From Cystobasidiomycetes sp. EMM_F5 (lineage: Eukaryota): a stretch of 64,000 nucleotides of DNA. Below, one piece after another: positions 2,366 through 58,383 of this stretch. Within the stretch, counting starts at the first letter, position 1, and each line of letters starts with the position of its first letter. The position numbers and the translations under genes were made by a program. The stretch spans positions 1 through 64,000 of the forward strand of contig JBPGPT010000019.1 in NCBI GenBank assembly GCA_051047955.1, read 5' to 3'. The notes below the pieces were generated by a model. It worked only from the letters and a program-made list of their open reading frames with translations. It was not told where the DNA came from and searched no databases.

Positions 2366-3086
2366 TCATGCAGAAGGGTCAGACAAGCCCTCGAGCGCGA
2401 CCAGATACTTTGTCATGTCGATCCACTCGTCGGGTCTGATGCTTATTGCGCAAGAGACCAGAGCGCTGTTGACGTATGGGTTTGACCATCGCTCGTGACC
2501 ATCTGAGCACTTGGACGAAGTAGAAACGGCTCCCTTGATAGTGCTGCACTCCAAAGCCCAATCGAGGCAGAAATCACCAAGCTTGGTGGCAGTGTTGAAC
2601 GCAACCAGCTGACGATCATCGTCGCGCTTATCGAAAAGTACCAAGGACTCAGAGGCCTGATCGACGTGCCGTCGTGACCAGCCAAGCGACTCGACGACAT
2701 CGCCGGCGATATCGTTGCCATTCGCCAAGCATTCAACCGTAAGCGTATTCTGTCAACATTTCGTTTCAGCCACAGGTCTCAGTCTAGCGGTACAATACCA
2801 CCTACGGCATCGTGTGCGCTCTGTGTGCATAATTGCTCCTGTGCGATGCCAGACATTCTGTAACAGGAAGGTTGTTGAGTAGGTGGCAAGCTGGTAGCTC
2901 CGAGGTTGCAACTCACTCTGAGCATCGACGATCCCATGTTATACAGGCTTGTTCAGCATGCAGACACGTCGGCAGATTGATGTCTGTCGAGGCAGCTGCA
3001 CTCCGCTTCATTGCAATTGGACCAGCCAAGGCAGTGGCGACCAGGCCTGCACCAACAATGGAAGCGAAGAAAGTGTTGCGAACCAT
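2366..3086 (-). CDS. Secreted two-domain Cys-containing pre-pro-protein (gene D; diverged paralog of the 50.7-55.4 kb cluster)
   Basis: Exons 3086-2917, 2857-2806, 2749-2366 with GTGAGT..CAG and GTAGGT..CAG introns. Translation: MVRNTFFASIVGAGLVATALAGPIAMKR-SAAASTDINLPTCLHAEQACITWDRRCSEMSGIAQEQLCTQSAHDANTLTVECLANGNDIAGDVVESLGWSRR...LFDKR-DDDRQLVAFNTATKLGDFCLDWALECSTIKG...CSDG...NSALVSCAIS... Signal peptide and two KR sites. Confidence 0.85.
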
Positions 3087-3993
3087 CGTATCAACAGCAG
3101 AGGTGAGTGAAGTGGATGTGTAAAGAAATGGATCGATGGAGTGTTGTGATGTAGCGCTGATGATGAAGGAGAAGAACGAGATTTCGCAAATCGCGCCTCT
3201 ATTTGAACACTTTGCGGAGACGCGTTGGTCTCCATGCTGTGCTGTTTACCTCTTGGCGTTTCCGTACACTGTAGTCCGGAAGCAGACCACAAATAGAACA
3301 GCTATCGGTTTCAGCGTTACAACACCGCAAGGCCTGCCTAATTGGGTCTTGCTGGAAAGTCCAGCGATGCGATATACAAACAATGCTTAGGTATATGGAG
3401 TCAGCGTGAGATTATCAATCTATGGCGGTGCTTTCAGTTGCTACATCCGGCTTCTGTCAGTCTGTGGACAAACGGGGAACGAGGAGGTCTGTTGTTGCTG
3501 GAGGCTGTGTGGCCACGAGCGCAAAGGGCGGAATCTTGAGTATATGGAGCTCCATGCTGATTCACGTTGCTGAAAGTACTTCCGCTGTGGTTGGACGATC
3601 AAGCAATCGCCGTGCTTTGCTATTTGCTCGGCTACTGGGCATGCTGCCATGCCATTACTCTCAAGGGTCAATGAGCGGCCCTGTACGAGATGGGGTATTG
3701 CTCAGACCTGCTAATACTTTCGTGCGCCTTGTCTGGGATATGGAGACTGAACACCTTGCCCTTCTCGTCGTTTACATGTATTGGTCTTGAAAGCGTCCAT
3801 TAAGGAAGCGGGCGGCGAGGTCGATATGCACGGCGTATTAGACGAAGCTGCCATTAACGTCAACATAAAAAACAGCTCTTCATTTGCAGCTCATATTGGC
3901 ATTATTTGCCAAGTTGGCTGAAAGCTGACCTGCCCATCGACAACGCGACTGCTCTTTGACTCTGCCCAATATTGACCTGGTAAATTACTGCCA

Positions 3994-55743: not shown

Positions 55744-58383
55744 CTATAAATCGTGTCTAGCGTTCTTGGACCGCATGCGGATTTGCTTGCCATACTTGTA
55801 AAGGACGAAGGGGATGGGAATAAACAAGATCGAGATGCCGCCCAGAAGGAAGCAACCCCAGATGACCTTGTAGTCGGGTAGGACGCTGGTGTTGAGATTT
55901 TGAAAAATGTACGTTCTGTGGGAAGGAAAGAATCAGCCATTCAGTCGAATCGTTGAAGGGTGATTTGGACGAACGAGAAGAGGGGGAAGACTATCACACG
56001 GGAATATGACGCGTCATCAGCTTCCGTTCGAAATGAGGCTATGCCTCAAACTCACTACCGCCCATCATTGATCTGAAGAAATCATTTCCGGCAAGCACAG
56101 ACGCAGCTCGTTCCTGCAAATTCATGCTTGTCAGCATTTTGTCTGAAGATACGATACACTCAAACATACGGGATAGGCATCTTGGCTGTCAGTTGCGGAA
56201 GAAGCAGAAGGACGGGCATCAGAATTTACGTGGCTGATGAAAAGCAGCAGTACTCACAGGTAATTCAAGCAAGCCTGGAATAAGAGGAACGCCGCAATGG
56301 AGAACTAATTGCAGAGCTTGTCAGCCATTGCTTGCGCATCATCCAGCGAAGTGACGTCACGTACAAACGAACTGAAGATGATGGGAGCGATCCAGTGAAC
56401 GTGCTTAACAGATGTTGCGCCAAAACTGTTTGGTGGAGAGATGTCTATCAGAGTGTGCGACAGTGCATACATTCAATGACATACGTGAACAAGCAAATCG
56501 GCAGGAACCAGCACCCAACAAAGGCTGGCAAGAGACTGGAATAGCAACACGTCAGCAGGAACATCGACGCCTACTAATACAAACACATACCGTCTCTCAG
56601 GCGGGAGCTTGCCCTTGTAGCGGCGAATATCTGGGATCTGAGAGTAGTGATTCCAAATGCAGAAGCCGGCGTACGCGACGATTGCGCCAACAAACAGCTG
56701 CAGAGAATGCGTTAAGCAATGTATACATTGACTCCAGCCTCATGCTACTTACGCCAAGGTAGGAAAGACCGTTTTCGCCAAGGTTAAAGCCGTAAATCTG
56801 CACGAATACCAGCTGGAATGACTCGATGAAGCAGTAAAGTATAGCATATACCAAGCCCTGCTCAGAAGAGTAGTTTTAGTCTCTAAAGCGTGCTGTTGGA
56901 AAAGAAGTGTACGAACGATATAGACTGGAACGACGTGCTTGCAAGTCAGTAAGGCCAAAGAGAATAGGATTTCAATGACTCACGATTCAGGGCAAGGCAG
57001 ATGGGTTCAGTAAAGCTGTAGACGATTGGTAGCAGGAGAGTCATCTTGATAATTTCTTTACCAGTCATCTTGGAAGCGACAATCTCCGACTGACTTCTGA
57101 GGTTGTTGTTGCCAGTACGTTTGCGGAGACGAACTGCTCTTCTGTACAGAATGTTGTTTGTCGATGTCTCTGGGAAGAAGAAGAGAAGCATCGCCAGACA
57201 GAATCCATCAAGCCAAAGCAAGATCCAGAATGCCCAGCGCCAGCTCTCTGCTTGGATAGCAAAACCGCCCAACAGTGGCCCTAATACTGGTCCACAAACT
57301 GCCGACATGCCCCAGATACCGACAGCATACGGGCGTGTCTTGTCGGAGAACATGTCCTGCAGACTGGCACCGCCGGTTGCCAGCACAGGGGAACCGAAGA
57401 AACCGGCGATAAATCGCAGCGTCATCAGGCCTGCAAAGTTCTGTACTGTGGCGGAGAGAGCTTGCATGACGACGAAGATGGTGAGGGTAATAACGTAGGG
57501 AGGAGTTCTTCCGATCTGAGGGATCTCAGAGAGAGGAGCGAGGAAGAGTGGGCCTATACCATAACCAATGACGAAAAGGGTGAGACCTAGTGTGGCTACC
57601 GTACTCGAGACGCCGAAGTCCATATTGAGAGACTCATAACCAGGAGAATAGATCGCTGAACCGATATAAATGCTGAAAGTAAGCAAGCAAAGCTCGGCAG
57701 TGACGGCGCATTTCTTGAAGAGAGACCAGTTTTGCGGGTTGGCAGGATCGGTCTTGCTGTACCAGCTGCAGAATATGGTGAAGCGTCAGAAACGGCGGAT
57801 CACCAGCGAGGAGATATAACCTACGTGACAATGTTGGGATCAGAGTCTGGTGGAGGCCTATCTGGGTCTCTGTCCTCCGAGTTGTCGTTGTCGTCACCTT
57901 GCAAGGGTCGCCCACCCTCCTCTTCATCGCGACTGCGGTTCTGCTGCTCGTTCTTTGTGACCTTCTCCTGCTTGTTCTCCTTCTTGCTGGTTTGCGCAGA
58001 AGACTCCTGCTGATCCTGCTGAACGACGGTCCGATCCGATGACTGGGATGTGCGATCCGCATTTTCGTTTGTCCCCTCTCCTTGCTCCTGCTGCCAGCCT
58101 TCCATGTTCATGGATCGCATCTTCTTTGCACCGAGCTTCTTGCCCTTTGTCTCGTAGTACTTGTCTGGGACTTGCCAGTCATCGTGCTCCTCTGGATAGT
58201 ACCCTCTCGTCTTCTTGATAGCATGATAAACGAGCTGTCCGGCTGCAGAGGCAGATGCGAGTAACAGAGTCAGCGATGACGAAGGTGGGTATGCGTCCAT
58301 TAGCTCGCCAGCTTACCAAACGACTCTGCGATAAAGTCGGGAATGTTAGTATGACGGTGCGACTTTTTGTTTCGCTCGTGCAT
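55744..58383 (-). CDS. MFS multidrug transporter, DHA1 (Flu1/Mdr1/Caf5-like), many exons
   Basis: DPANPQNWS, TFSIYIGSAIYSPG, LGLTLFVIGYGIGPLFLAPLSEIPQIGRTPPY, LRFIAGFFGSPVLATGGASLQD, WRWAFW, FFPETS, ASVLAGNDFFRS and IPFVLYKYGKQIRMRSKNARHDL*. Confidence 0.92.

Follow-up and report, generated by a model that had tools for sequence, protein, structure and literature searches.

According to the account in PMC12382754, UmV-KP6 and fungal KP6-fold proteins are secreted as precursors that are cut into two small domains of the same fold; the alpha and beta domains of KP6 derive from one pre-protein, with alpha serving recognition and beta toxicity, and in Zt-KP6-1 two disulfides (beta1-H2 and H1-beta3) tie both helices to the sheet. 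K1, K28, K2 and SMKT, as far as they are described in PMC13211469, combine a signal, a pro-peptide and dibasic sites with a short spacer that separates the two mature parts, and Kex2-processed repeat proteins (KEPs) are presented in PMC7329392 as having a signal peptide and Kex2 sites between their units. Here we analyzed gene D, located on the minus strand of a 64,000-nucleotide stretch (hereafter, the window) of contig JBPGPT010000019.1 from Cystobasidiomycetes sp. EMM_F5, and found that it is intact and belongs, as a dispersed member, to a family of five genes (A, B, C and D in the window, and E on contig C199) whose precursors contain domains of 70–85 residues with four Cys. Cystobasidiomycetes are basidiomycete fungi within Pucciniomycotina. 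The D precursor comprises, in order, a leader with a hydrophobic core, KR, domain D1, RR, a 13-residue spacer, KR and domain D2; the hydrophobic stretch would correspond to a signal peptide, and a leader followed by KR is common to D, A, B and E.

D shares these elements with K1, K28, K2 and SMKT; however, the two parts of D are homologous to each other and each is predicted to fold alone, and D has neither a long gamma domain nor a hydrophobic central helix nor a spare Cys pair that could cross-link the parts. Similarly, D has the predicted signal peptide and Kex2 sites expected of KEPs, a description that gene B fits well, whereas the units of the D family are predicted to be folded disulfide domains with introns of their own, and D1 and D2 are 19% identical, far under the 65% cut-off used for repeat grouping in PMC7329392 (the B units share 39–53% pairwise). 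Judging from its sequence, D can be placed among Kex2-cut secreted precursors in the broad sense, but its domains, which are predicted to be folded, carry introns in the family and fall into two subtypes.

Relationships among the family domains

The original prediction described D as a distant paralog of A, B and C and quoted a leader and domain motifs, all of which are present in the sequence. This paralogy is virtually certain, as it is indicated by the leader, the four-Cys domain, the intron sites, an upstream element, a profile match and matching folds. Compared with each of the seven A/B/C domains, D1 gave z values of 8.6–21.8, and in no case did any of 1000 shuffles score as high; it scored 54.8–55.9 bits against a profile of the subtype found in A, B and C (type I) built without D1. 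D2 scored weakly in pairwise comparisons with the same seven domains (z = 2.0–7.6). Profiles of type I and of the subtype of D2 (type II), which had no rows in common, were aligned by hhalign with a probability of 94.9 (E = 4.7e-8), and the models of D2 and B1, one from each subtype, showed the same fold; both comparisons strengthen the case for paralogy with A, B and C.

A profile search over 1.84 billion representatives returned 11 matches, namely four pieces of window genes, three outside relatives and four repeat proteins, which were dropped. In P0002 and P0006 (from ENA and Logan assemblies), the last domain follows type I domains and is preceded by KR, with 48% and 39% identity to D2, respectively. 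Neither protein belongs to this genome, in which their best matches reached 48% and 38%. E2 is 44% identical to D2, and type II domains are mutually 36–48% identical (D2 to the others, 39–48%), while D1, E1 and domain b of P0002 share only 26–27%. Moreover, type II is the last domain, after KR-[ND]D, in all four precursors that carry it (D, E, P0002 and P0006). The joint presence of type I and type II in proteins of other assemblies agrees with the earlier view that the family is old.

In a tree of 14 domains, D2, E2 and the last domains of P0002 and P0006 lay on one side of a 98/95 branch. D1 grouped, without firm support (86/91), with the A/B/C domains and had the longest branch (2.25, compared with 0.4 for D2), and a D1+D2 clade was rejected (p-AU 0.002). 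E1 was placed between the subtypes, which is also where its scores put it (44 bits to type II and 24 to type I). From the identities and the tree, we are highly confident that type II is a conserved C-terminal subtype. D2 had been described as much more diverged; this holds in comparison with A, B and C but not within its own subtype, and D2 is therefore the conserved domain, whereas D1 is the long branch.

Some features of the public proteins were also observed. P0002, P0006 and P0013 read through their type II domains in a single open frame, and at their N-termini P0006 and P0013 resemble translated intron; judging from the proteins, these three genes may, like D, keep only 5' introns. P0017 and P0019 each have a longest contig of 3756 nucleotides and might both derive from a single multi-domain gene or cluster of another organism.

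Gene structure, introns and genomic history

The coordinates of D and its relatives in the window are summarized in Table 1. The splice model chosen for D ranked first among 92 open-frame models when scored against the type I profile from which D1 had been left out (54.8 bits; runner-up, 48.5). The intron offsets of D1 are those of A1, A2 and B1 (2 and 20 codons after Cys2; 24 and 6 before Cys4), which bears out the claim of homologous sites and phases, and D2 is intronless and D1 has an extra fifth Cys (C41, codon at 2966-2964), as had been proposed. The public model of D, P0001, shares its outermost splice sites (2916 to 2750) with ours, yet it begins at an internal ATG, omits exon 2 and lacks the signal peptide. 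The first two introns of the partial public models of A (P0021) and B (P0003) agree with our homology-based models. Compared with the homology-based models, the public ones for D, A and B (P0001, P0021, P0003 and P0004) are cut short or wrongly spliced.

Table 1. Positions of gene D, its parts, related genes and upstream elements in the window
Feature	Position	Strand	Description
Gene D	3086-2366	minus	ATG 3086, stop 2368-2366; exons 3086-2917, 2857-2806, 2749-2366; 201 aa
D exon 1	2917..3086	minus	Predicted signal peptide and pro-peptide to KR (3086-3003), then D1 strand 1 and CxxWxxxC helix
D intron 1	2858..2916	minus	59 nt, phase 2, GTGAGT..ACAG, two codons past Cys2
D exon 2	2806..2857	minus	17 codons; holds Cys3 of D1
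D intron 2	2750..2805	minus	56 nt, phase 0, GTAGGT..ACAG, six codons ahead of Cys4
D exon 3, first part	2624..2749	minus	End of D1 (type I), RR (2674-2669), 13-residue spacer, KR (2629-2624)
D2	2366..2623	minus	Type II domain, 85 aa, no intron, plus stop codon
Upstream element of D	3229..3241	minus	Ends 143 nt before ATG
Gene A	50697..51484	plus	Leader and two type I domains, 4 introns, no inter-domain KR
Upstream element of A	50544..50556	plus	141 nt before ATG
Gene B	52480..53598	plus	Leader and three type I domains split by KR, 5 introns
Upstream element of B	52327..52339	plus	141 nt before ATG
Gene C	54662..55443	plus	Tandem copy of A; frameshift early in domain 1 (near 54776) as assembled
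Upstream element of C	54502..54514	plus	148 nt before ATG

Gene E was located by searching the genome with D exon 3 (C199, 609685-608818, minus strand); it encodes leader-KR-E1-KR-spacer-KR-E2 in 210 residues and has four introns. In E2, the phase-2 intron lies at the family site, and the phase-0 intron is shifted upstream from its site by two codons. Because E2 keeps both introns and the codons of D2 are continuous across both family sites, with no gap, D2 appears to have lost two adjacent introns precisely. The simplest route would be recombination with a cDNA, and the loss of adjacent introns reportedly fits a reverse-transcriptase model. A study of basidiomycetes attributed intron loss to recombination, yet many of the losses it describes are mid-gene (PMC2395259, as far as its account extends). 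Domain B2 (53057-53326) has no phase-0 intron although the adjacent domains do, which makes for a second, internal case of intron loss among the family genes.

A 13-bp element, CACAGCATG[G/C/A]AGA, ends 141–148 nucleotides upstream of the ATG in D, A, B and C. There were four matches in the window against 0.02 expected and six in the 18.3-Mb genome, a count that is not a blind test since the pattern was set after inspection of the four promoters; the two remaining genome copies lie in unrelated sequence, and the full element is not present at gene E. The constant spacing and rarity of the element fit common descent, and the four genes are probably under common regulation through it. Because the element is shared, D would have originated at the DNA level together with its promoter and 5' introns, and not as a retrocopy.

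D is inverted relative to A and lies 47.6 kb from it, and ordinary genes lie between them, including ones with Pfam matches to POP1, HAT_KAT11, KilA-N/ankyrin and SLA1-type families, as well as below-cut-off matches to CorA-like and Clr2. A random paralog would fall within 50 kb with a chance of about 0.5% (100 kb of 18.3 Mb), and D is therefore likely of local origin, either through a split of the cluster or through a copy that moved a short distance.

C and A share 77% DNA identity over 1378 columns, including about 500 nucleotides upstream, and the frameshift in C reflects either a pseudogene or an assembly error. There is no KR between the two domains in A (51110-51145) and C (55075-55110), and their products may be secreted as tandem two-domain proteins. 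The stretches after A (51830-51990) and C (55790-55990) look alike by eye, as if the A/C duplication had taken in part of a neighbouring gene, but were not listed in the self-BLAST.

Predicted fold and possible function

The AlphaFold models of D2 (predicted local distance difference test score, pLDDT, 90) and B1 (pLDDT 93) are ferredoxin-like alpha/beta sandwiches with two helices on a four-stranded antiparallel sheet, in the order beta-alpha-beta-beta-alpha-beta as taken from the secondary structure of the models and not from strand order in the coordinates. Both models match ferredoxin-like folds across their full length; the top-ranked matches are generic ones (HMA/Atx1, ACT, RRM and NusG-N) at 18% identity or less. 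These proteins are not secreted modules closed by disulfides, and they allow no transfer of function. In the D2 model, Cys19 and Cys26 lie in H15-27, Cys39 in E34-41 and Cys58 in E52-63, with no Cys in strand 1 or H71-77, and B1 is alike. No Pfam model matched the family above the cut-off, no PDB-sequence or Atlas match was obtained, and no description of the family was found in the literature searched.

The element order, the two helices on a four-stranded antiparallel sheet and the two predicted disulfides per domain are also those of the KP6 fold. However, there is no sequence match to KP6, and both helix Cys of the D family are on helix 1 (CxxWxxxC), with none on helix 2, whereas KP6 ties both helices to the sheet. 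In addition, the D family is chromosomal and intron-bearing, with two or three domains per precursor and in some cases no KR linker. Because the disulfide layout differs, D should not be filed as KP6, and the likeness is an analogy at best; nor does D belong with the K1/K28-type toxins.

The leader and dibasic sites suggest that the precursor is very probably secreted and Kex2-cut: the signal peptide would direct it to the endoplasmic reticulum, each domain would close two internal disulfides, and Kex2 would cut after KR/RR, freeing D1 and D2. An alpha/beta two-component precursor, as originally proposed, is plausible given the place of type II after KR at the end of its carriers. Under our preferred reading, D would encode a Kex2-cut two-part antimicrobial precursor. 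Its products would act like KP6, as toxins in competition with other microbes: the conserved type II domain would be the active module, and the fast-changing type I domain would serve as its recognition partner, with no disulfide joining the two. In PMC13211469, a number of yeast alpha/beta toxins are likewise predicted to have no disulfide between their domains. A KP6-like role would agree with a type II domain that is conserved and always last, in contrast to the divergent D1 and E1. Exact matches to D occur in two 151-nucleotide contigs of one phyllosphere metagenome, a thin hint of a competitive habitat. Several points weigh against this reading: the domains are acidic without being hydrophobic, type II is missing from A, B and C, no KR separates the domains of A and C, B1 is conserved as much as type II, and the antimicrobial role is argued by analogy. 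We assign it a probability of about 0.35.

Nearly as likely is that the secreted domains act separately on a surface or a host rather than on rivals, as adhesins, lectins, a cell-wall coat or plant-directed effectors, with type II as a conserved flavour. The acidic, non-amphipathic character of the domains, their variable number (two to three) and the optional KR linkers are consistent with such roles, and Kex2-cut repeat precursors described in PMC7329392 include repellents and effectors, e.g. Rep1, Hum3 and Rsp3. However, the invariable last place of type II suggests a role tied to a partner, and neither a binding motif nor a matching family was found. A further close rival, though rather unlikely, is that the precursors are polyproteins of antimicrobial monomers that act independently, with no alpha/beta pairing: A, B and C hold type I domains only, domains modelled singly are predicted to fold confidently and Zt-KP6-1 is reported as toxic alone as a monomer (PMC12382754), but the order of type I then type II is kept in D, P0002 and P0006.

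A co-regulated, combinatorial toxin/effector system, in which a type II subunit from D or E would pair in trans with up to nine variable partners from A, B, C, D and E and so change the target range, is an unlikely extension that would imply a previously undescribed disulfide-closed domain. Secreted protease inhibitors resembling subtilisin pro-domains (I9-like) are very unlikely, since the relevant match rows tie with many unrelated ferredoxin-like folds and there is no Pfam match. It is equally improbable that D is a decaying copy whose long D1 branch, the longest in the tree, and unpaired Cys stem from relaxed selection, as the frameshift in sister gene C might suggest, because the D frame is open, its splice sites are intact, its upstream element is kept, all eight core Cys are present and D2 is 48% identical to a relative from another assembly.

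The original prediction that the fifth Cys joins D1 to D2, as in K1, a heterodimer held by one disulfide in the account of PMC13211469, is not supported and is extremely unlikely. C41 has no partner in D1, but D2 carries just the four Cys that are invariant across the 14 domains, with none to spare for an inter-chain bond of the K1/K28 kind, and D1 is the only domain of the 14 with a fifth. More likely, C41 remains unpaired, cross-links two D1 chains or exchanges with one of the internal Cys.

Fungal genomes commonly hold scattered paralogs of small secreted proteins, and finding one is correspondingly less surprising. With no Pfam match above the cut-off, no sequence match to solved structures and truncated public models of D, A and B, the family would be missed in secretome surveys. 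It provides a clean example of introns tracing domain duplication and loss inside one gene family, and D points to type II as its conserved module. If the products are antimicrobial, they would represent a new small disulfide-stabilised scaffold from little-studied basidiomycete yeasts.
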